Below are positions 1 through 9,888 of a stretch of DNA of 9,888 bases, one piece after another (the stretch's first letter is position 1; each line of letters begins with the position of its first letter). Source of the stretch: a virus (lineage: Duplodnaviria > Heunggongvirae > Uroviricota > Caudoviricetes). The translations under genes and the position numbers were made by a program. Below the pieces are notes generated by a model. The model was not told the DNA's origin, did no database searches, and worked only from the letters and a program-made list of their open reading frames with translations. The stretch covers positions 1-9,888 of the IMG/VR virus record IMGVR_UViG_2529292908_000017. The stretch is one strand, 5' to 3'.

Positions 1-1242
1 ATGGCGAGAAAAACACACCCATTAACCACAGTGCAGATCAAAGCAGCCAGACCAGCGCAAAAGGAGTACACCCTGCAGGACGGCGGAGGGCTTTTTCTCC
101 TGGTCAAACCGTCTGGATCAAAACTCTGGAGATTTTCCTACTACCGACCATCGGACAAAAAAAGAATATTGCTGAGTTTTGGATCGCTTGAAGATGTTTC
201 CCTGGCTGATGCCAGAAAACGCCGTAGCGAGTACAGGACGTTAATCAGTGCCGGAACTGACCCGCAGGACCACGAGAGGCAAAAAAGAGAGACAGAGGCC
301 CGAAGACAAGGGAACACGTTCGAAAATGTGGCGGCGGCATGGTACCAGGTGAAAATCAGCCAGAATCTGGCCCCCAACACGATTAAAGACATCTGGCGTT
401 CGCTGGATAAATATGTATTCCCGTTCATCGGCAACACGCCAATAGATACCCTCACCGCCCGAAGGTTCGTTGAAGTGCTTACCCCCATCAAGGAGCGCGG
501 CAACCTGGAAACACTCAAGCGGGTTTTACAGCGCGTTAATGAGGTAATGGATTACGCCGCCAACAGTGGGCTGATTGATGCCAATCCGGCTATGAATGTG
601 CGTAAGGCGTTTCCCTCACCTGTAAAAAAACATATGCCAACAATCCGCCCCGAACAGCTGCCGGAGCTTATGCAGGCTTTATCAGTATCGGCAACAGAAC
701 GGCAGACCAGATTACTGATTGAATGGCAGTTACTGACCGTAACCCGTCCCGCCGAAGCGTCATCAACGCGGTGGGATGAAATCAACCTGGACGCGAAGCA
801 ATGGACGATACCTGCCGGACGCATGAAGATGCGCAGGGATCACGTTATCCCGCTTTCCGGTCAGGCTATGGCGGTGCTGGAGGCCATGAAACCAATCAGC
901 CACCACCGCAATTACGTTTTCCCAAGTCTGAAAGACCCACAGCAGCCGATGAACAGCCAGACAGCTAACGCAGCATTGCGGCGTATGGGATTCGCTGGCG
1001 TGCTGGTGTCTCATGGATTACGCGCCATATTCAGCACAGCAGCGAACGAGGAAGGATTCGAGCCGGACGTAATAGAGGCGGCACTTGCCCACGTCGACAC
1101 CAACGAAGTTAGACGGGCATACAACCGGAGCAACTACATAGAAAAACGCATCGTGCTGATGCGCTGGTGGGGCGAATTTGTCGAGGCTGCGGCGACGGGC
1201 GTAACCCTCGCCAGTGGTAAAAGGGGTATCCGAGCCGTGTAG
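1..1242 (+). CDS. int: Tyrosine recombinase / integrase, P4-type (satellite / genomic-island family)
   Basis: 413-aa ORF starting at window base 1. N-terminal arm-type region (GGGLFLLVKPSGSKLWRFSYY) typical of P4-family integrases; C-terminal catalytic region with HGLRAIFST (H-x-x-R) and RAYNRSNY (tyrosine nucleophile region). Recognition by eye, no search. Confidence 0.9.
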   Translation: MARKTHPLTTVQIKAARPAQKEYTLQDGGGLFLLVKPSGSKLWRFSYYRPSDKKRILLSFGSLEDVSLADARKRRSEYRTLISAGTDPQDHERQKRETEARRQGNTFENVAAAWYQVKISQNLAPNTIKDIWRSLDKYVFPFIGNTPIDTLTARRFVEVLTPIKERGNLETLKRVLQRVNEVMDYAANSGLIDANPAMNVRKAFPSPVKKHMPTIRPEQLPELMQALSVSATERQTRLLIEWQLLTVTRPAEASSTRWDEINLDAKQWTIPAGRMKMRRDHVIPLSGQAMAVLEAMKPISHHRNYVFPSLKDPQQPMNSQTANAALRRMGFAGVLVSHGLRAIFSTAANEEGFEPDVIEAALAHVDTNEVRRAYNRSNYIEKRIVLMRWWGEFVEAAATGVTLASGKRGIRAV

Positions 1243-1319
1243 CTGTACAGAAAACCAGTAAAAACTACGAAAACCATGTAAAACCGTCGTATAATTGCAT
1301 CAAATTTAACGACAAGGCC

Positions 1320-1571
1320 GTGAAACATGAAACCGTTAAGATGCAAAAAAATATCAGATGCAATTGCGACGGGCTGCAACTGGCCCTGATGGTTCAGCAT
1401 GAATTTTGGTCAACCTACGATCCGGAGGACAGGACGACGGCCCCATCAAAAAAACAGGTAGTAGATTTTCTGGTATCCCGTGGCGCTTCCAGAAATCTGG
1501 CGGTAAGTATTGATAAGGTCGTACGTCCGGCATCTATGAAGATCGGAGGCAGGCCCAAAAAATGGCGGTAA
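1320..1571 (+). CDS. Hypothetical small protein (83 aa)
   Basis: ORF with AAGG about 10 nt upstream of the ATG, ending 10 nt before a strong intrinsic terminator. A TATAAT hexamer lies at about 1290-1295. No family recognised. Confidence 0.45.
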   Translation: MKHETVKMQKNIRCNCDGLQLALMVQHEFWSTYDPEDRTTAPSKKQVVDFLVSRGASRNLAVSIDKVVRPASMKIGGRPKKWR

Positions 1572-1580
1572 CAATCCTGG

Positions 1581-1606
1581 AAGCGGCAGAAATGCCGCTT
1601 TTTTTA
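1581..1606 (+). terminator. Rho-independent terminator
   Basis: Stem AGCGGCA / TGCCGCT (7 bp) with GAAA loop followed by a T6-7 run, immediately after the 1320..1571 ORF. Confidence 0.7.
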
Positions 1607-1629
1607 TAATTCCATTTCAAATCATCAAT

Positions 1630-1735
1630 ATAAAAAACGGTGTATACCGTTTAAAAACGGTGGGAACTGTTTTTACCCATATCCGATGATTTACCGTATT
1701 TGTCACCGGAATACACCGGATTCACAAGGTAAATC
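1630..1735 (+). promoter_or_regulatory. Putative promoter/operator region upstream of alpA
   Basis: 10-bp direct repeat AAAAACGGTG at 1633-1642 and 1653-1662; inverted half-sites ACGGT-N4-ACCGT at 1637-1650; direct repeat CACCGGA at 1704-1710 and 1714-1720; AAGG RBS at 1726-1729 before the ATG at 1739. Function inferred. Confidence 0.3.
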
Positions 1736-1738
1736 ACG

Positions 1739-1944
1739 ATGGAAGCAATCAGAAAAATTATCTTTCGCCAGGAAGTAAAAAAATTATCCACATCAAGGCA
1801 GACAGCACGCTGCAAAGCATGATCAACGCCGGAGAATTTCCGCAGGGTTTTCGCGTTGGTTTACGCCGTCGCGGATGGTATGAGGATGATGTGTTGGCCT
1901 GGCAGAAAGAACGCGAACAGGAAGCACGCGGAACGGCTGCTTAA
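1739..1944 (+). pseudogene. alpA: AlpA-family (prophage CP4-57-type) HTH regulator, apparently disrupted by a 1-nt frameshift
   Basis: Frame from ATG 1739 reads MEAIRKIIFRQEVKKLSTSRQTARCKA then stops (TGA 1820-1822). The -1 frame continues LQSMINAGEFPQGFRVGLRRRGWYEDDVLAWQKERE to TAA 1942-1944. Joined, they match the AlpA pattern (TG-x-SR-x-T-IY-x-hh-x-G-x-FP ... G-W-x-E-x-D-h-x-x-W). Length 206 nt is not a multiple of 3; shift localised to about 1803-1811. Confidence 0.6.
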
Positions 1945-2092
1945 CGGGTATCACAGATATGACAAACACGAAAAAAGCGGCCCCGATATGGAGCCGCCTT
2001 TCTGAACAATTAACCCGCTGCGCCTTATGTGTATGTGATCCCAAACATAAGCACGGGGATGATAGCCGCTATCAGGCTGGTGGGCAATGCAA

Positions 2093-2266
2093 TCAGTCTG
2101 GTTCAGTTCGTTGCCATACCTGCAATGAGCGCTTTTCCCTATACTCTTTAAGGAATTGCTCAAGGGCAAAAGCACATGGTGCGAATCTTTCTGATTCATG
2201 CTCTATCTTTCTGCGCCGTCTTTTCCGTGCCGGTGATAATGTTTTGGTCAATTCTTTATCGGTCAT
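2093..2266 (-). CDS. Hypothetical small basic protein (57 aa from second ATG; 62 aa from first)
   Basis: Minus-strand ORF MTDKELTKTLSPARKRRRRKIEHESERFAPCAFALEQFLKEYREKRSLQVWQRTEPD, with AGGA 7 nt upstream of the internal ATG (+ coordinates 2264-2266). Composition is protein-like, unlike the overlapping 186-aa + ORF. No homologue recognised. Confidence 0.3.
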   Translation of the reverse strand: MTDKELTKTLSPARKRRRRKIEHESERFAPCAFALEQFLKEYREKRSLQVWQRTEPD

Positions 2267-2692
2267 TGTGTTGTCCTGCATAGCAATACGCCGTAATACC
2301 TCACACCACGGCGCTGGTGATGGTTACTCCTGCTCTTTGGCCTTGCGCCGCTGGCGGCGTTTGATCTCACCTTTAACGGCAGTAACTATAAATTGCGCCT
2401 TGCTTTCACCTTCATCTAAATTTTTTCTAAGTCTGCAACAACATCATGCGGGAATCTGGCATTTAACTGTTGCGACTTATTATTTGTTGAACCTGTTGCC
2501 ATTACTGAATCCTCTCTAAGTTGGTGCGATTCAGTATACACAAAAAAAATTTCAGAGAAAGGCTTGAAGTGCGATTCACTTACTGATAGGTTAAAAACGA
2601 ATGGTGCGATGCACCAAACAACAACGCCCCGCAGTGGTGGCACACATGCAGGGCGTCTAACCACCAACGATAACGAGAGTATCGAGGTAGCT

Positions 2693-2896
2693 ATGAGAAA
2701 TCATACCACACACCCGCAAGGGCGGGACTCGCACGACCTGAATAAATACATCTGGCGTTTTATCGCCCTGAGCACGGCACAACCGCGCGTGATTACCATT
2801 GAGGCCACCAGCGAACAGGAAGCACGCCTGCAATCCCCGGCTGGCTGCGTGATGGTATTCGCTGCCCGTATTCGCCAGGGGTCACATCATGCGTAA
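2693..2896 (+). CDS. Small protein, paralogue A of a tandem pair; possibly Ash / Icd-like family (unverified)
   Basis: ATG 2693 preceded by GAGG (2684-2687). C-terminal motif YIWRF ... EATSEQEARLQSP ... FAARIRQGSHHA is repeated in the next gene, with synonymous third-position differences (CGT/CGC, CGC/CGT). The longer TTG start at 2564 in the ORF track has no credible RBS. Confidence 0.5.
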   Translation: MRNHTTHPQGRDSHDLNKYIWRFIALSTAQPRVITIEATSEQEARLQSPAGCVMVFAARIRQGSHHA

Positions 2897-3575
2897 AAAC
2901 CGCTTGCAAAAAATTATCACGGGGCTGTATGCTTCCCCCGTCGCCCACATGGCGACCGGGTTTAGCAGCCTGAATACATCTGGCGGACAGCCGCCCACAT
3001 CCGATAAGCGGTTTTTTTGTGTCCGTAAACCTACCCATACCCGCATTATGGCGGGGCGTAACGGGGGAGCCTTTGTGCTCGCTGGTTTCCAGATGACCAG
3101 TCTGCTAACCCTGTTACGTCTCGCCACCATGTTTAGCAGCGTAGTAGCGAGACTCCTTAAAATTCATCTGGGAGCCTTTCACATGGCTGTATTCGCACGC
3201 CCTTATTTTGTCTGGCGCTTTATGCAGTGCCTGACAGACAGTATTGCAATATTCACCGTTACCGCTGCCACTGAGCGCGAAGCACGTGCACAGCTGCCGC
3301 ACGCACATCTTATTTTTGTCGCCCGTATTCGCCAGGGGGGGGGAGTCATGCATAAAATACCCTTTGATGTTCTTGTTCATTCTGAAAACGCATTAATCCG
3401 CGCAAAGGAAATGGACGCATTACTACTTAAGTTAATTGATGTGCCGGAAAGTGGCGATGAATCTGATTCAATGATGTTTTCTGCCGTGCGTACGCTATTA
3501 ACGCCTGTTATTAATGAATTAAATACAGTGATGGCAATTCACGAGAATAATAAAGCGCAGCACAACGGAGAATAA
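2889..3575 (+). CDS. Composite ORF: N-terminal segment of unknown nature, then paralogue B (from internal ATG 3183 with GGAG RBS), read through a G9 tract into a 75-aa C-terminal segment
   Basis: Continuous 228-aa ORF; ATG 2889 overlaps the stop of the previous gene (ATGCGTAA). Residues from 3183 (MAVFARPYFVWRF ... TAATEREARAQLP ... FVARIRQGGG) parallel paralogue A. G9 tract at 3335-3343; with G10 the paralogue would end ...QGGGSHA* (compare A: ...QGSHHA*) and a separate ORF would start at ATG 3348. Confidence 0.4.
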   Translation: MRKNRLQKIITGLYASPVAHMATGFSSLNTSGGQPPTSDKRFFCVRKPTHTRIMAGRNGGAFVLAGFQMTSLLTLLRLATMFSSVVARLLKIHLGAFHMAVFARPYFVWRFMQCLTDSIAIFTVTAATEREARAQLPHAHLIFVARIRQGGGVMHKIPFDVLVHSENALIRAKEMDALLLKLIDVPESGDESDSMMFSAVRTLLTPVINELNTVMAIHENNKAQHNGE

Positions 3576-3580
3576 AAAAC

Positions 3581-3880
3581 ATGAAAAATAAAAATTCTGG
3601 CGTTACTGCCAGCGGCCCCGCTCGTCCTGAATTTATGAACGGCGATATTTACCGCGATAAATATGGCGGCATGGTAACGATTAAAGGCGTGGCAGAACGG
3701 CGCATCACCTACCGTCGTGAAGGCTACGAATATGATTGCGTGATGCCTGTTTATCAGTTTCGGCGTGATTTTTCTCTGGTACAGGCAGCGCCCCGCAGTA
3801 AACCAACCAGCAGGGAGAAAGCACGCGCCAATATTCAGGAAATAAAAAAGATGCTTAACGTATTCAGGGGTAAAAAATGA
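3581..3880 (+). CDS. Hypothetical protein (99 aa), translationally coupled to the primase
   Basis: ORF with GGAG upstream; its TGA stop (3878-3880) overlaps the primase ATG (3877-3879) as ATGA. Protein-like composition; family not recognised. Confidence 0.6.
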   Translation: MKNKNSGVTASGPARPEFMNGDIYRDKYGGMVTIKGVAERRITYRREGYEYDCVMPVYQFRRDFSLVQAAPRSKPTSREKARANIQEIKKMLNVFRGKK

Positions 3881-5625
3881 AACTGGCACCGAACGTAAAA
3901 AAACAGCCACGCGGAATAAAACACAAAGACACAGAGGTAATTATTTTCGCGGGTAGTGATGCCTGGTCGCACGCGAAACAATGGCAGGAGCAGGATGGCC
4001 CCGCATCCGGCGATAATGTGCCGCCTGTGTGGCTTGGGCCAAATCAGCTTGCCGAACTTGATGCACTGAAAATTGTTCCGGATGGGAAAAAGCGCGTAAG
4101 GCTGTACCAGGCCGGAGAACTGGATTTGGTGGAGACCAAAAAGATTGGTCAGAAGCTGGCGGCAGCAGATATTCAGGACGCAAATTTTTACCCCGAAGGA
4201 ATGCACGTCCAGAAGTGTGAAAACTGGCGGCGCTATCTGAATGCTGAGCGTGAAAATATTGCCGCAGGGCTTACCATGCCGGAGCAGAAAAATACGCAAC
4301 TGGCACAAATGGCAGACAGTGAGCGCGCGCAGCTGCTTGCCGAGCGCTTTGATGGCGTTTGTGTGCATCCTGAAAGTGAAATCGTTCACGTATGGCGCGG
4401 CGGGGTATGGTGTCCGGTCAGCACAATGGAGCTGAGCCGCGAAATGGTGGCGATCTATTCAGAGCACAGGGCCACTTTCAGCAAGCGCGTAATCAATAAC
4501 GCCGTGGAAGCGTTAAAAGTTATTGCCGAACCAATGGGCGAGCCGTCCGGCGATTTGCTGCCGTTCGCCAATGGTGCGCTTGACCTGAAAACGGGGGAAT
4601 TTTCCCCGCACACGCCGGAGAACTGGATCACCACGCACAACGGCATTGAGTACACGCCACCAGCACCAGGGGAGAACATCCGCGATAACGCGCCAAACTT
4701 TCATAAATGGCTTAAGCACGCAGCCGGAAAAGACCCGCGCAAGATGATGCGTATATGTGCCGCGCTGTACATGATTATGGCGAACCGGTACGACTGGCAG
4801 ATGTTTATTGAGGCCACCGGAGACGGCGGGAGCGGTAAAAGTACATTCACGCACATAGCCAGCCTTCTGGCAGGGAAACAGAACACGGTAAGCGCTGAAA
4901 TGACATCGCTTGATGATGCTGGTGGACGTGCGCAGGTTGTCGGGAGTCGTCTTATCGTCCTGGCTGACCAGCCGAAATATACAGGCGAAGGAACGGGCAT
5001 CAAGAAAATCACGGGCGGTGACCCCGTGGAAATTAACCCGAAATATGAAAAGCGTTTTACGGCGGTAATCAGGGCGGTGGTGCTGGCGACCAACAACAAC
5101 CCGATGATATTCACCGAACGGGCCGGAGGTGTGGCACGTCGTCGCGTGATTTTCCGTTTCGACAATATCGTCAGTGAGGCCGAAAAAGACAGGGAGCTAC
5201 CGGAAAAGATTGCGGCTGAAATCCCTGTGATTATCCGCCGATTACTGGCGAACTTTTCCGCCCCTGAAAAGGCACGGGCTTTACTCATTGAACAGCGTGA
5301 CGGTGATGAAGCACTGGCGATAAAGCAGCAAACGGATCCGGTTATTGAGTTTTGCCAGTTCCTGAATTTTCTGGAGGAAGCGCGCGGCCTGATGATGGGG
5401 GGCGGTGGCGATTCAGTGAAGTACACGACCAGGAACAGCCTTTACCGCGTCTATCTGGCGTTTATGGCATACGCAGGCAGGAGCAAACCGCTAAACGTAA
5501 ATGACTTTGGCAAGGCTATGAAGCCAGCCGCGAAAGTTTACGGACATGAATATATTACGCGGAAAGTTAAGGGAGTAACGCAGACTAACGCAATAACAAC
5601 AGACGATTGCGACGCGTTTTTATAA
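3877..5625 (+). CDS. Phage/plasmid primase-helicase, P4-family C-terminal domain / D5-like SF3 NTPase (satellite pri-rep type)
   Basis: 582-aa ORF with AGGGGT RBS. Walker A P-loop ATGDGGSGKST, followed by motifs typical of D5 / P4-alpha-type helicases (LIVLADQP Walker B-like, VVLATNN). Immediately followed by an iteron array. N-terminal ~300 aa not assigned. Confidence 0.88.
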   Translation: MKLAPNVKKQPRGIKHKDTEVIIFAGSDAWSHAKQWQEQDGPASGDNVPPVWLGPNQLAELDALKIVPDGKKRVRLYQAGELDLVETKKIGQKLAAADIQDANFYPEGMHVQKCENWRRYLNAERENIAAGLTMPEQKNTQLAQMADSERAQLLAERFDGVCVHPESEIVHVWRGGVWCPVSTMELSREMVAIYSEHRATFSKRVINNAVEALKVIAEPMGEPSGDLLPFANGALDLKTGEFSPHTPENWITTHNGIEYTPPAPGENIRDNAPNFHKWLKHAAGKDPRKMMRICAALYMIMANRYDWQMFIEATGDGGSGKSTFTHIASLLAGKQNTVSAEMTSLDDAGGRAQVVGSRLIVLADQPKYTGEGTGIKKITGGDPVEINPKYEKRFTAVIRAVVLATNNNPMIFTERAGGVARRRVIFRFDNIVSEAEKDRELPEKIAAEIPVIIRRLLANFSAPEKARALLIEQRDGDEALAIKQQTDPVIEFCQFLNFLEEARGLMMGGGGDSVKYTTRNSLYRVYLAFMAYAGRSKPLNVNDFGKAMKPAAKVYGHEYITRKVKGVTQTNAITTDDCDAFL

Positions 5626-5636
5626 TTTTTTGCAAT

Positions 5637-5865
5637 GTCTGTCTACCCTGTCTACCTGAGTAAAGAAAAATACATTTAATTCAGTATATTAACTTAGGTA
5701 GACAGCCTTTTTTCACTGTCTACCTACTATCTACCCTCTCTACCTGATTTTACCTGAATCAGACAGGGAGGTAGATACGGGGTAGATAGTGGATAAAAGC
5801 ACTCTACCCCGCTGAAAGCCGCGCCATTACTGGCATGAGAGCCAGTAAGGTAGATAAGGTAGACA
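5637..5865. repeat. Iteron array, putative replication origin
   Basis: About 11 copies of the heptamer GTCTACC / GGTAGA(C/T) in both orientations (e.g. 5641-5647, 5650-5656, 5697-5703, 5718-5724, 5770-5776, 5781-5787, 5849-5855, 5858-5864) around an AT-rich core (about 5657-5695), directly downstream of the primase-helicase gene. Confidence 0.65.
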
Positions 5866-5913
5866 AGGGGAGGCACAACTCAAAACTTTTTAAACGAGGG
5901 GGTAAAAATAAAA

Positions 5914-6171
5914 ATGCGCACATCAGGAAAACTTAATAATCAGAAGAAGCAGCATAACCGCGCCATTGACCTTACAGAGCACTGGCTGAGAGTGGCGATA
6001 AAAATCATCGACCGCAACACGGGGGAAGGATACGCGAAAGCACATCCCGACCTGATAAGCGCATTCATGACCACGGCGGCAGCAAACTTTGCCACGCTGA
6101 CAGAACGGGAGATTGCCGAAGCGGAACAGGTGACAACCATCAACGTTAAAACCGGAGAGCAGACAGCATGA
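5914..6171 (+). CDS. Hypothetical protein (85 aa), coupled to ssb
   Basis: ORF with GAGGGGG upstream; its stop overlaps the next ATG (ATGA at 6168-6171). No family recognised. Confidence 0.5.
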   Translation: MRTSGKLNNQKKQHNRAIDLTEHWLRVAIKIIDRNTGEGYAKAHPDLISAFMTTAAANFATLTEREIAEAEQVTTINVKTGEQTA

Positions 6172-6590
6172 CAGCACAGATAGCGGCTTACGGGCGGCTG
6201 GTGGCTGACCCGCAGTTAAAGACCACCAGCAAAGGGACACAAATGGCGATGGCGAGTATGGCGGTTCCCCTGCCATGCAGCCAGGCAGATGACGGAACGG
6301 CGACGATGTGGTTATCTGTCCTGGCGTTTGGCAGACAGGCCGACGCACTGGCAAAACACCACAAAGGCGAACTCCTGAGCGTGGCGGGTAATATGCAGGT
6401 GAGCCAGTGGACAGGCCAGAACGGCGAAACGCGGCAGGGCTGGCAGGTTATCGCAGACAGTGTAATCAGTGCCAGAACGGCGCGACCGGGCGGCAAAAAA
6501 GGTCAACAGGGGCAGGCTACTGACGCACTGAACAGGGCAAAACAACAGGCGGGAAATGATGATCCGTACGGGGATAACATACCGTTTTAA
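6168..6590 (+). CDS. ssb: Single-stranded DNA-binding protein (SSB-like OB fold with acidic C-terminal tip)
   Basis: 140 aa. N-terminal OB region aligns by eye with E. coli SSB (YGRLVADPQLK vs VGNLGQDPEVR; WLSVLAFGRQADALAKHHKGE vs [21 protein letters not shown]). Gly/Gln-rich linker and C-terminal DDPYGDNIPF resemble the SSB tail DDDIPF. Confidence 0.78.
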   Translation: MTAQIAAYGRLVADPQLKTTSKGTQMAMASMAVPLPCSQADDGTATMWLSVLAFGRQADALAKHHKGELLSVAGNMQVSQWTGQNGETRQGWQVIADSVISARTARPGGKKGQQGQATDALNRAKQQAGNDDPYGDNIPF

Positions 6591-6606
6591 GCAACGAGTA
6601 ACAGAG

Positions 6607-6628
6607 GCCGGAGCAATCCGGCTTTTAT
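6607..6628 (+). terminator. Rho-independent terminator after ssb
   Basis: Stem GCCGGA / TCCGGC with GCAA loop followed by TTTTAT. Confidence 0.65.
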
Positions 6629-6861
6629 CAGTTGAGTCCGTCACACTACGCAAAAAAAAGCCGGAATATTCCGACCCTTTCATCACCAAAGAGAATAATT
6701 TATGTCTTTGAACTTGTAACGCTGTACAGAATGACACGTAACGCCGGATAAATAAACGAAGATTGAAACTTTGCACACTATTGCATAGCAATGCATAAAG
6801 ATGCCAAACAAGGCAGATGATAAAATTAACGCGACACTTTTACTAAGTATTAAGAGGTTAT

Positions 6862-7902
6862 ATGAGTGATTTATATTCGCCAGCCATGTTAATACAGGTT
6901 GTTAATGCCGAAGATATTCAATGGCAGATTAATTCTTTATTTATAAACCTGTTTTTTAAGCGAGTCGTTACATTTGAGACGCGGGATATTGCGCTTGATA
7001 TTATTGACGATCCAGACATCCCGATGGCTGCATTTTGTTCCCCTATGGTTGGTAGTAAAGTCTCACGCGATGAAGGCTACGAATCAAAAGTAATTCGCCC
7101 TGGCTATATGAAGCCAAAAAGTAGTATCGACCCAAATAAAATAGCCGTTCGTCAACCAGGCGTATCACCTGAACAATTCAATGCATATTCATCACGCAGT
7201 TTCAAAATAAAGCGAGCGTTAGTAAGACAAGCGCAGGCAATTCGTGCGCGTATTGAGTGGCTTGCTGTTCAGGCGGTTACAACGGGGAAAAATATCATTG
7301 AAGGCGATGGAATTGAACGTTATGAACTGGACTGGAATATAAAACCACAAAATATTATCACGCAGTCCGGCGGCACGGAGTGGAGCGGTAGAGATTTATC
7401 AACATTTGATCCAAACGATGACATCGAAGAGTACGCAGAAATCAGCGAAGGTACTACAAATATCATCGTAATGGGCCGCAACGTATGGAAAAAATACCGC
7501 GCCTTTAAAGCAGTAAAAGATTGCCTTGATACTCGACGGGGATCTAATTCCATTCTTGAAACGGCCCTGAAAAATCTTGGGGATTCTGTAAGCTTCAAGG
7601 GTTACGTTGGCGATGTTGCTATTGTGGTATATAGCGGACGTTATACCGACGAGGACGGCAAAGAAAAATATTTCCTTGATCCTGATTTGATGGTGCTTGG
7701 CAACACATCATTACAGGGCATCGTTGCCTACGGTGGCATTCAGGATCCTGAGTTAATCAGAATGGGGCTGACTAAAGCCGAACTTGCGCCGAAAAATTAC
7801 ATCGTACCAGGTGATCCGGCTATTGAATATGTGCAGACGCACAGCGCACCGCAACCAATACCGGCCCGCATCAATCGTTTTGTTACCGTTCGCATTGGTT
7901 AA
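6862..7902 (+). CDS. Major capsid protein, phage lambda gpE family
   Basis: 346 aa with AAGAGG RBS. Long colinear matches to remembered lambda gpE: NIITQSGGTEWSGRDLSTFDPNDDIEEYA (lambda NITQSGGTEWSKRDKSTYDPTDDIEAYA); FKAVKDCLDTRRGSNSILETALKNLGDSVSFKGYVGDVAIVVYSGRY ... MVLGNT (lambda FKAVKEKLDTRRGSNSELETAVKDLGKAVSYKGMYGDVAIVVYSGQY ... MVLGNT). Confidence 0.9.
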   Translation: MSDLYSPAMLIQVVNAEDIQWQINSLFINLFFKRVVTFETRDIALDIIDDPDIPMAAFCSPMVGSKVSRDEGYESKVIRPGYMKPKSSIDPNKIAVRQPGVSPEQFNAYSSRSFKIKRALVRQAQAIRARIEWLAVQAVTTGKNIIEGDGIERYELDWNIKPQNIITQSGGTEWSGRDLSTFDPNDDIEEYAEISEGTTNIIVMGRNVWKKYRAFKAVKDCLDTRRGSNSILETALKNLGDSVSFKGYVGDVAIVVYSGRYTDEDGKEKYFLDPDLMVLGNTSLQGIVAYGGIQDPELIRMGLTKAELAPKNYIVPGDPAIEYVQTHSAPQPIPARINRFVTVRIG

Positions 7903-7911
7903 GGGGGAGCA

Positions 7912-8253
7912 ATGGCTACTCATTACACTGAACTCATGGCTGGCACTGAAGCACTGGTTACTACGTTGGGGATATTTTCAGCTAATAAAGGGGTAATTCC
8001 TGCATTTACGCCACTGATGCAAGAAGATGCAACTGGTGCACTGGTGGTATGGGATGGAACGAGCGCAGGCAAAGCTGTTTATGTTTCCGCTGTACAAATC
8101 GATACAGCGACAAAAACGCAGGCTCAGGTTTATAAAACCGGCGTCTTAAATGTTGATGCTCTGAACTGGCCTGAGTCTGTAACACAACTATCAGCAAAAG
8201 TTGCTGCGTTTGTTGGCTCAGGTATTTCTGTTCAGCCGCTGGCACGTGTGTGA
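7912..8253 (+). CDS. Head decoration protein, phage lambda gpD family
   Basis: 113 aa with GGGGGAG RBS. Matches remembered gpD: TPLMQEDATGALVVWDGTSAGKAV (lambda [24 protein letters not shown]), YKTGVLNVDALNWPE (YKSGTFRYEDVLWPE), AAFVGSGISV (TAFAGTAISIV). Confidence 0.85.
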   Translation: MATHYTELMAGTEALVTTLGIFSANKGVIPAFTPLMQEDATGALVVWDGTSAGKAVYVSAVQIDTATKTQAQVYKTGVLNVDALNWPESVTQLSAKVAAFVGSGISVQPLARV

Positions 8254-8262
8254 GGTACGAGA

Positions 8263-8607
8263 ATGATTGAAAGAGATAGTCAGCTACGAGAGCTATTAGA
8301 TATCGATGACAAAATGAGTTTAAGCGAGCGCCTTGTTGATATGGATCAGGTAGTGGAGCTTACAACCCTTAGCCGTCGCACATTGCTAAACCTTGAGGCT
8401 CGCGGAGAGTTCCCCGAACGCGTACAGGTTACGAAAGGGCGCAAGGCATGGTATTTAAGCGAGGTTGTTGCGTGGATTAACAACATTCCGCGCGCATCAA
8501 ATTATTGCCTTGTTCCCACCCCCGAAAAACCTGATGCGGCGTTATGCCTCAAGATTGAACGCGCCAGGCGTAATGCCCTGAAAGGACGCAATAAGTTGAT
8601 TGGTTGA
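8263..8607 (+). CDS. AlpA/MerR-like helix-turn-helix DNA-binding protein (114 aa)
   Basis: GAGG RBS. Central segment VVELTTLSRRTLLNLEARGEFPERVQVTKGRKAWYLSEVVAWI fits the AlpA / excisionase-type HTH pattern, with N- and C-terminal extensions. Lies between the decoration gene and cos. Confidence 0.65.
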   Translation: MIERDSQLRELLDIDDKMSLSERLVDMDQVVELTTLSRRTLLNLEARGEFPERVQVTKGRKAWYLSEVVAWINNIPRASNYCLVPTPEKPDAALCLKIERARRNALKGRNKLIG

Positions 8608-8631
8608 TGAAATTAGGGCCCGTTCTGGCTG

Positions 8632-8830
8632 GCGGGTCCTTTCCGGCGATCCGGCAGGCTACGGGGCGGCGACCTCGCGGTTTTTCGCTATTTATGAGCC
8701 TTTTCAGGGGGGTGGTGGTGGTTTTGTTGTTTGATCTATCTTTATGAATGAAAAGGGAAAGATGCAAGCAATACACCAACCTGAAGCAGTAATTAAGTTG
8801 GTGTATTAATGAAATCTCATCTGATGAACA
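8632..8830 (+). other. cos site 1 (+ orientation): lambda-like cosQ/cosN (cosN 8664-8675, GGGCGGCGACCT) followed by a divergent cosB-like region up to the terS start
   Basis: GCGGGTCCTTTCCGGCGATCCGGCAGGCTACG-GGGCGGCGACCT-CGCGGTTTTTCGCTATTTATGA is near-identical to the remembered lambda cos junction. Downstream lacks lambda R-site-like GAAACGACA elements but has an 11-bp perfect inverted repeat (8770-8780 / 8797-8807). Confidence 0.75.
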
Positions 8831-8837
8831 AAAAAAC

Positions 8838-9350
8838 ATGGCGAAAAGCTGCCGTGTAAGTGCGACAGCGTTCGACAAGTGGGGAGTAACTCCCGTTGAG
8901 CGTAAAGGCCGTGAGGCGTTTTATGATGTTGCCAGCGTGATAGAAAATAGGGTTAACAATGCAATTAGCCAGCTTATAAACGACAAAGGCGAGATTGACG
9001 ATGATGAACTTTTACGAGTCAGGATCAGATTACTGACAGCACAGGCAGAGGCGCAGGAACTTAAAAACGATCGCGATCGCGGTGACGTGATTGATACTGA
9101 GTTTTGCCTGTACGCGCTTTCAAAGCTGGCGAGTCAGATTTCATCAATCATGGACAGCCTCCCGCTTACTATGCAAAGGAGCTTCCCACAGATTACCCCC
9201 GCCATGCTGGATAGGCTTAAAAGGGAAGTGGTTAAAGCCTGTAATGCCAGTGCCAGAGTTGCCGACAACCTCCCACAGATACTGGCTGATTACTTGAAAG
9301 AAACAACCGGAAACGTACCGGAAAAGTTGCTACAGAAGAAAGGCGAGTAA
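8838..9350 (+). CDS. Terminase small subunit, lambda Nu1 family, with divergent N-terminal DNA-binding region
   Basis: 170 aa. C-terminal two-thirds matches remembered Nu1: LTAQAEAQELKNDRDRGDVIDTEFCLYALSKLASQISSIMDSLPLTMQRSFPQ (lambda LTRAQADAQELKNARDSAEVVETAFCTFVLSRIAGEIASILDGLPLSVQRRFPE). N-terminal ~45 aa only loosely similar. An upstream ATG at 8824 (MNKKTW...) is out of frame by 1 nt across an A7 tract. Confidence 0.85.
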   Translation: MAKSCRVSATAFDKWGVTPVERKGREAFYDVASVIENRVNNAISQLINDKGEIDDDELLRVRIRLLTAQAEAQELKNDRDRGDVIDTEFCLYALSKLASQISSIMDSLPLTMQRSFPQITPAMLDRLKREVVKACNASARVADNLPQILADYLKETTGNVPEKLLQKKGE

Positions 9351-9369
9351 CAGACGCGCAATTATTGAA

Positions 9370-9580
9370 CAAAACTGAGAAACGACATGAAAGCGTCATA
9401 AATCGCCATTTTAGATGATTACCGTGTCGTTTCTTTTTATTGTGTATCTATTTAAAAACAAATAGTTATGTTCGAGAAGTACCGACATGCTTTTTCCAGA
9501 AAATTTTTCATAAACAGATAAAAACCGCGAGGTCGCCGCCCCGTAACGGGTCCATAATTCCAGGAAGGACCCGACGACAC
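9370..9580 (-). other. cos site 2 (inverted): cosN at 9530-9541 with a lambda-like cosB (R3 / IHF-I1 / R2 / R1-like elements) on the terS-proximal side
   Basis: The reverse complement reads ...CCCGTTACG-GGGCGGCGACCT-CGCGGTTTTTATCTGTTTATGAAAAATTTTCTGG ... CGAACATAACTATTTGTTTTTAAATAGATAC ... AAAGAAACGACACGG ... CATGTCGTTTCTCAG, paralleling the remembered lambda left end (cosN, I1 IHF site CGTCATAACTTAATGTTTTTATTTAAAATACC, R2 GGAAACGACAGG, R1 CTGTCGTTTCC). No terminase gene follows in this orientation. Confidence 0.7.
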
Positions 9581-9606
9581 CAGACAATCAGAACGATGGG
9601 TGCACA

Positions 9607-9888
9607 ATGACAGAAGCCGAAATACTGGGATTAATCCGCCGTGCTGGTGGAATCAGCCAGCAGACTGACGAACAGGCCACGCAGCCGGACAGCGTGACAG
9701 CCGAAAATTATGCGCGTGTTGTTGCTGAGGTGATGCGCCGTGATGGTATCCAGCTTAATGATGTGGATATGCGCAACATACGGATCCGCGTTCTTGAAAT
9801 GCTGGCCTACCGTCGCCGCGTGCAGACGTACAGGGAAAAAGCAAAAATTACGTACCACTGGAAGAAGCCGGAGCGGTTACGGCGGTAA
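9607..9888 (+). CDS. Hypothetical protein (93 aa)
   Basis: Complete ORF ending at the last base of the window (TAA 9886-9888). Weak RBS. No family recognised; Arg-rich C-terminus. Confidence 0.45.
   Translation: MTEAEILGLIRRAGGISQQTDEQATQPDSVTAENYARVVAEVMRRDGIQLNDVDMRNIRIRVLEMLAYRRRVQTYREKAKITYHWKKPERLRR

Follow-up and report, generated by a model that had tools for sequence, protein, structure and literature searches.

Three conserved repeats at predicted divergent promoters as probable operators of a YlcI/YnfO-family protein in a phage-satellite island

Several well-described genetic switches place the sites of a regulator in the gap between two diverging genes. In the immI region of phage P22, small ribbon-helix-helix (RHH) repressors (Arc and Mnt, about 50 to 80 aa) act on the divergent promoters Pant and Pmnt through operators that cover core promoter elements; the gene for Arc belongs to the operon that Arc represses, and the gene for Mnt lies divergently beside the operators. 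In the lambda OR region, three related sites share a short gap with the back-to-back promoters PRM and PR, one of which drives the repressor gene, and natural variants fall into heteroimmune groups. Among satellites, the Stl/Rpr and stl-str systems of the staphylococcal pathogenicity islands (SaPIs) and of Gram-positive phage-inducible chromosomal islands (PICIs) have a regulator divergent from the operon of replication genes, with its sites in the gap. The immI region of P1 and P7 consists of a C1-controlled promoter followed by the c4 antisense RNA, icd, and ant, and immunity in P4 is based on the CI RNA. Here, we analyze a stretch of 9,888 nucleotides (the window; IMG/VR virus record IMGVR_UViG_2529292908_000017, positions 1 to 9,888), which comes from an Escherichia-like genome and represents a phage-satellite island of the P4-like/PICI type. 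Three short repeats in this island are probably the operators, named O1 to O3, of an adjacent and divergently encoded protein of the YlcI/YnfO family. This would be a switch of a classical kind, but in a protein family and in a class of satellites where such a switch has so far not been described.

The comparison with these systems reveals likenesses and differences. The putative switch resembles P22 immI in the probable type of protein and in its predicted divergent promoters with sites over their core elements, and the strand Q-L-N-A-R of the YlcI-like protein aligns with Q-F-N-L-R of Arc. It differs in that the protein belongs to another family (NF041551), that three separate 11-bp sites replace one 21-bp operator bound by a tetramer, that the operon leads from an Icd-like gene to a primase gene rather than to an antirepressor, and that the element is a satellite and not a phage. 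The number of sites and the diverging promoters recall lambda OR, but where lambda has 17-bp sites next to each other, the island has 11-bp pseudo-palindromes at distances of 45 and 35 bp, and the class of protein is different. The layout also recalls the Stl systems: in this satellite, too, the gene of the putative regulator diverges from the operon for replication, as expected of a PICI master repressor. However, Stl is a far larger helix-turn-helix protein in which we detected no similarity to the YlcI-like protein, the integrase gene is not on the repressor side of the switch in the window, and the inducer of the Gram-negative PICIs is AlpA (PMC6092414). Finally, as in P1 immI, the operon in the window joins a promoter predicted to be under protein control with an RNA lock, including an RNA of the C4 family, a sub-threshold match to its a1b1 target, and two Icd-like genes. 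Unlike P1, the regulator of the promoter would be an RHH-like YlcI protein instead of C1, and an Icd-like gene precedes the RNA. The repeats do not belong to the RNA system.

The preliminary description of the window had pointed out three copies of GTGCGAT, at 2524-2530, 2569-2575, and 2604-2610, and these are indeed present, all on the plus strand and with no further copy in the 9,888 bases. The first two copies share a 10-bp form (GTGCGATTCA), as had been reported, and the third extends to GTGCGATGCA. Taken alone, the 7-mer is a weak observation: in first-order Markov simulations of the window, some 7-mer occurred three times within 90 nt in 153 of 1,000 cases (15%). The longer form is rarer, since two exact 10-mers and a third one with at most one mismatch were found within 100 nt in 15 of 3,000 simulations (0.5%). 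Closer inspection identified the true unit as an 11-bp pseudo-palindrome, GTG-N5-CA(C/G), at 2524-2534, 2569-2579, and 2604-2614, and the second and third copies lie within the longer palindromes AAGTGcgattCACTT (2567-2581) and TGGTGCgatGCACCA (2602-2616). The three copies are located in a 190-bp gap that separates two divergent genes, ylcI on the minus strand (2324-2502) and an Icd-like gene on the plus strand (from 2693). The region 1950-2700 is not the non-coding-looking stretch that it was first taken for: most of it is coding on the minus strand, by the YlcI/YnfO gene and by an open reading frame (ORF) of 62 aa (2093-2281). The decisive evidence on the repeats is comparative, not statistical.

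To obtain related islands, we aligned YlcI-like proteins and retrieved 41 loci (named by L and a number) from species representatives of the Enterobacterales, including Citrobacter, Morganella, Proteus, Pectobacterium, Dickeya, Xenorhabdus, Yersinia, Hafnia, Serratia, and Raoultella. We added 7 further loci from exact-protein look-ups and 5 more Escherichia coli islands from RefSeq, with those of IAI39 and MEW included for new classes. All islands follow a common plan: from the ylcI start codon one reaches site 1 at position 25, fused to a near-invariant CAGTATAC, then an A-rich tract, an invariant TTGA whose final base begins site 2, a 17-bp spacer, a TAnnnT, site 3, a structured leader, and an Icd-like gene. 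Site 1 is at position 25 in 41 of the 41 loci; in L045-L049 and IAI39, its arms or its core are weakened. Site 2 lies at positions 69-71 and is of the GTG-N5-CAC type in the 41 loci, the 7 further ones, the E. coli islands of IAI39 and MEW, and the window; seven Xenorhabdus loci have a mismatch in one arm. Site 3 lies at positions 92-106, in either orientation, and carries the core specific to the locus. The repeats are thus far from being absent in homologues: 50 related islands have them, at conserved positions over two predicted divergent promoters.

The arms of the sites are near-constant, except for the CTG...CAG arms of sites 1 and 3 in one class and for degenerate arms of site 1 in a few loci. 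The 5-bp core varies between islands, but it is common to the three sites of each locus, with a mean difference of 0.47 between sites 1 and 2 and of 0.29 between sites 3 and 2 (either orientation), versus 3.0 and 2.7 between protein classes. When cores were permuted over 14 class representatives, the observed match was reached in none of 20,000 shuffles. At least 11 cores exist (CGATT, TATTT, TGTTT, GCATT, GTGTT, TAAGA, GAGCA, GGAGT, GATTC, TTCAA, and GGCCA). The sites are also confined to the gap: allowing at most one mismatch to the site 2 of each locus, we counted 113 matches in the 140-nt regions and 4 in the 250 kb outside them. These results refute the idea that the repeats are either chance matches or iterons of a replication origin. 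The frequency of 7-mer triples in the simulations speaks for chance, but chance would not conserve the position and the form of the sites across 50 islands. As for iterons, the sites are 1.3 kb upstream of the primase gene and on predicted promoters, and a real iteron cluster is found after that gene, at 5639-5868.

Five genomes carry two such islands (L006/L029, L008/L033, L037/L041, L016/L036, and, in E. coli EC100, H4 and L045), always of two different core and protein classes, which is what one would expect of heteroimmune elements, although five genomes are too few for a test. Another case is L054 of E. coli IAI39 (1091-1300), in which the C4 region is 99.6% identical to that of the window but the YlcI-like protein is of another class (strand QTVAARV, cores TTCAA/TTTAA). 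This island has an additional site just upstream of the -35 element and a degenerate site 1, and hence the number and the placement of the sites can vary. A phage collection searched with the module, by blastn with the DNA and by tblastn with the protein, gave no matches.

The positions of the sites become meaningful once the promoters are considered. Both promoters are predicted rather than mapped, and the leftward one was assigned by eye. In the rightward direction, a predicted -35 element (TTGAAG, 2564-2569, plus strand) is followed after 17 bp by a predicted -10 element (TAGGTT, 2587-2592, plus strand) preceded by a TG at 2584-2585, with the start of transcription predicted at about 2599. 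In an alignment of 30 sequences (A4), the TTGA is invariant in 30/30, and the TAnnnT positions of the -10 element are at least 90% conserved at a spacing of 17 (±1) bp. In the leftward direction, a predicted -10 element of ylcI (TATACT on the minus strand, 2534-2539) lies in the CAGTATAC that A4 shows to be invariant or conserved to at least 90%, and transcription is predicted to start at about 2527. These elements (TTGA, spacer, TAnnnT, and CAGTATAC) stand out against variable surroundings. The three sites are thus copies of one site placed on predicted core promoter elements (spacer, -10, and start). O1 (GTGCGATTCAG, 2524-2534) includes the final base of the leftward -10 element and covers the predicted ylcI start, at approximately -7 to +4. 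O2 (GTGCGATTCAC, 2569-2579) fills the spacer of the rightward promoter, at approximately -30 to -20, and its distance from O1 is fixed at 45 bp. O3 (GTGCGATGCAC, 2604-2614) covers approximately +6 to +16 relative to the predicted rightward start. The tract between O1 and O2 (2540-2562) keeps its A-rich composition in A4; it could serve the rightward promoter as an UP element and the leftward one as a spacer.

Given this placement, a protein bound to O2 and O3 would block the RNA polymerase and therefore shut the operon that leads from the Icd-like gene to the primase, and one bound to O1 would repress its own gene. Alternatively, the YlcI-like protein might bind the sites but chiefly activate, or switch in both directions; from O2, for instance, it could stimulate its own promoter, like lambda CI at OR2. 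The leftward promoter does have a good -10 element without a -35 element, O2 precedes the predicted leftward start by about 47 bp, and three sites between divergent promoters resemble lambda OR. Still, the places of both O2, within the rightward spacer, and O3, centered near +11, are classical for repression, and O1 over the protein's own predicted start favors autorepression, and we regard activation as a rather minor possibility.

Which protein recognizes the sites? Because the islands are mosaics, the linkage of the cores to the different neighbors can in part be separated. The distance between cores is correlated with the identity of the YlcI-like proteins (Spearman rho of -0.59 to -0.73) and with that of their strand residues (-0.63). 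There are no pairs of loci with the same core and a strand identity below 0.7, and none with an identical strand and cores that differ at 3 or more positions. The sites are thus conserved and change together with an adjacent putative DNA-binding protein, which supports the suggestion that they form a set of regulatory repeats. An obvious alternative is that another factor binds the sites, be it the AlpA-like regulator, the Icd-like protein, the 62-aa protein, or a transcription factor of the host. AlpA is known to activate related E. coli islands (PMC6092414), and the Icd-like protein matches phrog_6196 and phrog_1743, labelled "transcriptional repressor." However, the cores are not correlated with the identity of the AlpA-like (rho of +0.09) or the Icd-like proteins (+0.08): different cores stand beside Icd-like proteins that are 91-98% identical and AlpA-like proteins that are 100% identical, and the same core stands beside Icd-like or AlpA-like proteins less than 40% identical in 41 and 96 pairs, respectively. 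The 62-aa protein was ruled out as the binding protein, since the other genera retain the sites but lack its ORF. A host factor would explain neither 11 cores in one bacterial order nor two of them in one genome (L006/L029 and L037/L041). Binding by another factor is therefore unlikely, and the YlcI-like protein is the only conserved and co-varying candidate in these comparisons.

In the model that we favor, the constant GTG/CAC arms would define the site, and the 5-bp core would provide specificity by being matched to the variable strand at the N terminus of the YlcI-like protein. The match between core and strand would then sort the islands into separate specificity, or "immunity," groups. 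A simple recognition code based on strand positions 12 and 14 was tried and rejected, since L017 and L045 share K12/Q14/R16 (strands QKMQARV and QKLQARA) and have different cores (GAGCA and GATTC).

The YlcI/YnfO gene of the window (2324-2502, minus strand) is annotated as such by RefSeq in near-identical DNA, namely in L001 and L002, and also in L052. An intact homologue of 59 aa scores 63.3 bits against NCBIfam NF041551 (cut-off of 30) and matches phrog_949 with an E value of 3.5e-24. All the aligned relatives (61/61) match the same family (NF041551, DUF3950), which is small: 94 representatives were found at E values up to 0.001 among 1.8 billion proteins. The protein is probably an RHH dimer, as judged from its sequence and from structure prediction. 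The AlphaFold2 monomer has an extended N terminus followed by helices at residues 19-30 and 35-58, the second long and basic. Between the helices is an invariant G-E-S/T turn, and the N-terminal part has the alternating strand pattern xLNARFP (SQQLNARFP). With hhalign, K9-G32 aligned onto S5-N29 of Arc in the correct register, with a probability of 39.6%. No Pfam family was assigned to the protein, and its weak Pfam matches (CB_ParB_C, PSK_trans_fac, and RHH_1) belong to the RHH clan. The sole sequence match in the PDB was 3no7 (E value of 0.023), which we take to be the RHH centromere-binding ParB of pCXC100. Fold searches with the monomer model gave no informative match.

Our results on the sites, their conserved positions, the concerted changes of their cores, and the linkage of these to the YlcI-like protein are observations, and binding, the direction of regulation, the positions of the promoters, and the RHH fold are what we infer from them. 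Several points weigh against the proposed switch. The induction of related E. coli islands needs the activator AlpA (PMC6092414). No -35 element could be recognized in the leftward promoter. The spacings of 45 and 35 bp between the sites do not correspond to a whole number of helical turns. The simple recognition code fails. The ylcI gene starts 25 bp from site 1, and part of the covariation between protein and sites could result from co-inheritance, which nevertheless would not explain how every lineage has one core at three separate sites, one of them often inverted. In addition, the ORF of the putative repressor is frameshifted in the window itself, with six T at 2421-2426 versus seven in the relatives; we read this as a probable sequence error. 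Two other homopolymers differ in length within the same 1.7 kb: at 1777-1783 the window has A7 versus A8 in close relatives, which breaks the frame of the AlpA-like gene, and at 3335-3343 it has G9 versus G7, which fuses the second Icd-like gene to the next gene. The three differences together suggest sequencing error rather than decay.

The literature gives few clues on the function of the gene. Our searches on YlcI/YnfO/DUF3950, on the regulation of capsid-forming PICIs (cf-PICIs), and on RHH repressors in PICIs found it only in a list of accessory genes of cf-PICIs, as a "prophage-associated protein" (PMC13612085). For the Gram-negative PICIs, the only regulator named in the literature that we searched is the activator AlpA, and a global repressor is called "unclear" (PMC6092414), and a repressor is not mentioned in the preprints on cf-PICIs (10.1101/2022.09.08.507074 and 10.1101/2025.02.11.637232). 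It is tempting to speculate that a large group of Gram-negative satellites, including PICIs, cf-PICIs, and P4-like islands, has the YlcI/YnfO-family protein as its master repressor. This protein would silence the icd-to-primase operon through the three operators and be inactivated or overridden by an active helper phage. The pairings of core and strand would then represent heteroimmune groups that let satellites share one cell, and this control would be layered with a leader RNA, and in some lineages with C4, over a toxic inhibitor of cell division. We put this scenario forward tentatively, as a possibility that goes well beyond the assignment of the operators.

The proposal could be of use. 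It provides the Gram-negative phage-inducible islands, whose known regulator is an activator (AlpA), with a candidate repressor and its defined sites, and it offers a first idea of what the YlcI/YnfO (DUF3950) family may do. The natural pairings of protein strand and 5-bp core, at least 11 on a constant scaffold, might be used to study or engineer the specificity of RHH proteins. The hypothesis is also accessible to experiment, since an identical protein (WP_000190566.1) is encoded with an Icd-like neighbor in a capsid-encoding island of O157:H7, of the cf-PICI type and located next to roxA-pepT.

YlcI and YnfO of E. coli K-12 (DUF3950), encoded in the prophages DLP12 and Qin, fall in the same NCBIfam family. 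The K-12 YlcI has an RHH-like pattern (RNIRFP...GSGNFS...) but is a distant member. Its gene (L044, 6447-6640) is found in a lambdoid prophage, beside an apparent DLP12 cos (identified by eye) and upstream of nohD, without the trio of GTG-N5-CAC sites and without an Icd-like neighbor; it has its own repeated motif, GTAGATG, upstream. In the literature that we searched there was no published function for the K-12 ylcI. This other context and the lack of such sites led us to discard it as a model for the module.

The preliminary description had offered a structured RNA as the other possible function of the repeats, and had noted an inverted repeat, TACTGAATC / GATTCAGTA (2503-2511 / 2528-2536), that overlaps the first copy. 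The inverted repeat is present and 9/9 complementary. Together with the repeats it might act at the RNA level, by forming a small RNA or by hiding the ribosome-binding site of ylcI in a leader hairpin. In agreement with this, it encloses the Shine-Dalgarno sequence of ylcI, a terminator-like hairpin with a T run is predicted at 2616-2602 of the minus strand, and RNA-based immunity is present in the element. Several lines of evidence make this explanation very improbable. Only 1 of 47 homologues retains all 9 pairs (the median is 6-7 of 9), without a pattern of compensatory changes. Sites 1 and 2 are upstream of both predicted transcription starts and outside both predicted transcripts. One arm of the inverted repeat coincides with the -10/+1 of the promoter predicted for ylcI and would therefore be absent from that mRNA. 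Rfam matches nothing at 2503-2692, even at E values up to 1. The terminator-like call was rejected: it corresponds to the palindrome of O3, and the T run that follows is, by eye, not conserved in the sequences inspected. Since the inverted repeat is not maintained and one arm coincides with the leftward -10/+1, we treat it as a by-product of O1 and of the translation start of ylcI, and we retain the three repeats as probable operators in DNA.

A structured RNA was found immediately downstream of the repeats, at 2619-2691 on the plus strand, where a covarying leader precedes the Icd-like gene. Its first hairpin (HP1, 2624-2656) has 13 pairs, with one bulge and one C.A mismatch; in 9 of the 13 pairs both partners have changed, and the paired fraction of the cells is 86.6%. 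In L045-L047, the sequence of HP1 is replaced and the hairpin is retained. The second hairpin (HP2, 2668-2684) is a 5-bp stem that abuts the Shine-Dalgarno GAGG at 2684-2687, with changes on both sides in 4 of the 5 pairs and 94% of the cells paired; in many homologues, the Shine-Dalgarno sequence is inside its loop. A conserved single-stranded UCUAACCAC separates the two hairpins. Over the whole leader, 88.7% of the cells are paired versus 25-41% in slid controls, 13 of the 18 pairs have changed on both sides, and the observed values were reached in none of 500 shuffles; the z-score of the predicted folding is -3.0. A covariance model built from 24 leaders (R1) matches the window at 2619-2691 with 68.9 bits and has one strong copy in every related locus searched, including loci outside the training set at 47-74 bits, except for L017, which has two; it has no copy in the K-12 control. 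The second copy of L017 (Superficieibacter; 5362-5433, minus strand, 74.7 bits) is 2.5 kb from the first and hints at another element, perhaps in tandem. Of the 42 regions considered (the 41 loci and the window), 35 gave a usable automatic ORF call, and in all of these the rightward genes begin with an Icd-like one. Our guess is that the leader plays a role in the translation or the stability of the message of this toxic protein.

An analogy with the RNA-based immunity of P4 had also been drawn, and it holds for the element but not for the location of the repeats. The window does encode a C4 antisense RNA (Rfam RF01695; 3044-3131, plus strand, 72.7 bits) and a match to the c4-a1b1 target just below threshold (2927-2976, plus strand; 45.5 bits versus a gathering score of 46.7). 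A sub-threshold isrK-like match (2940-3018, plus strand; 36.8 bits versus a gathering score of 50) comes with a terminator-like stem and a T run. This set of RNAs (2927-3131) lies between the two Icd-like genes, 300-500 nt downstream of the repeats, and at E values up to 1 the matches of this kind are confined to these three regions, with neither C4 nor the P4 CI RNA (RF01695 and RF03163) within 2503-2611. A b2-like GUUUAGCAGC directly follows C4, at about 3131-3140. In the window, a1b1 targets, terminator, and C4 RNA may thus form a second, RNA-based lock farther along the operon that the YlcI-like protein would control, which allows protein-level control to be told apart from RNA-level control in this element. 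C4 was not found within 3 kb of the module in 20 other islands with the same repeats, and we rejected it as a general partner of the operators.

In the order of the genes, the integrase, alpA, and the leftward ylcI are followed by the Icd-like gene and, farther on, by DUF4222, a primase or RepA, and capsid genes. In the window, the integrase gene (1-1242) is followed by the AlpA-like regulator (1739-1944), a bidirectional terminator (1971-2003), the 62-aa ORF (2093-2281, minus strand; phrog_21027, E value of 1.6e-15), and ylcI. Across the gap are the first Icd-like gene (2693-2896, plus strand; NCBIfam NF033153, 69.1 bits, cut-off of 25), the second one downstream of the C4-type RNA region, the DUF4222 gene (3581-3880), and the gene of a D5/P4-type primase (3877-5625). 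After the primase come genes for a single-stranded DNA-binding protein, a capsid protein of the lambda E type, a decoration protein of the D type, a second AlpA-family protein (8263-8607, plus strand; Pfam PF05930, E value of 8.7e-08), and a Nu1-like small terminase; the second AlpA-family gene is in the packaging module, between the decoration-protein and small-terminase genes. The only conserved leftward gene is ylcI, with the 62-aa ORF behind it in E. coli and in none of the other genera. An ORF of 186 aa on the plus strand (1959-2519) is probably spurious: it has no family match, it overlaps two supported genes of the minus strand, and RefSeq, through the Prokaryotic Genome Annotation Pipeline, labels it an incomplete pseudogene.

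The same mosaic is absent from the complete E. coli genomes in RefSeq, where the best match has 83% coverage and 93% identity. Its separate modules are common, and the stretch 1940-2700 is matched in 1,440 of 5,426 genomes. Since L001 and L002 match the window across 2041-2673 at 96-98% identity and yet differ on either flank, ylcI and its putative operators behave as one module.

Two further features of these islands deserve mention. The window contains dense direct and inverted repeats of 8-9 bp (CTGTCTACC / GGTAGAYA) at 5639-5868, directly after the primase gene, which are probably the replication origin of the satellite; two weak Rfam matches to "mir-3927" in this cluster, one per strand, are an echo of the symmetry of the repeats. 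The int-alpA RNA motif of Rfam (RF02996) was not detected between the integrase and AlpA-like genes of the window, even at E values up to 1, and was found in L004, L006, L019, L021, and L035.

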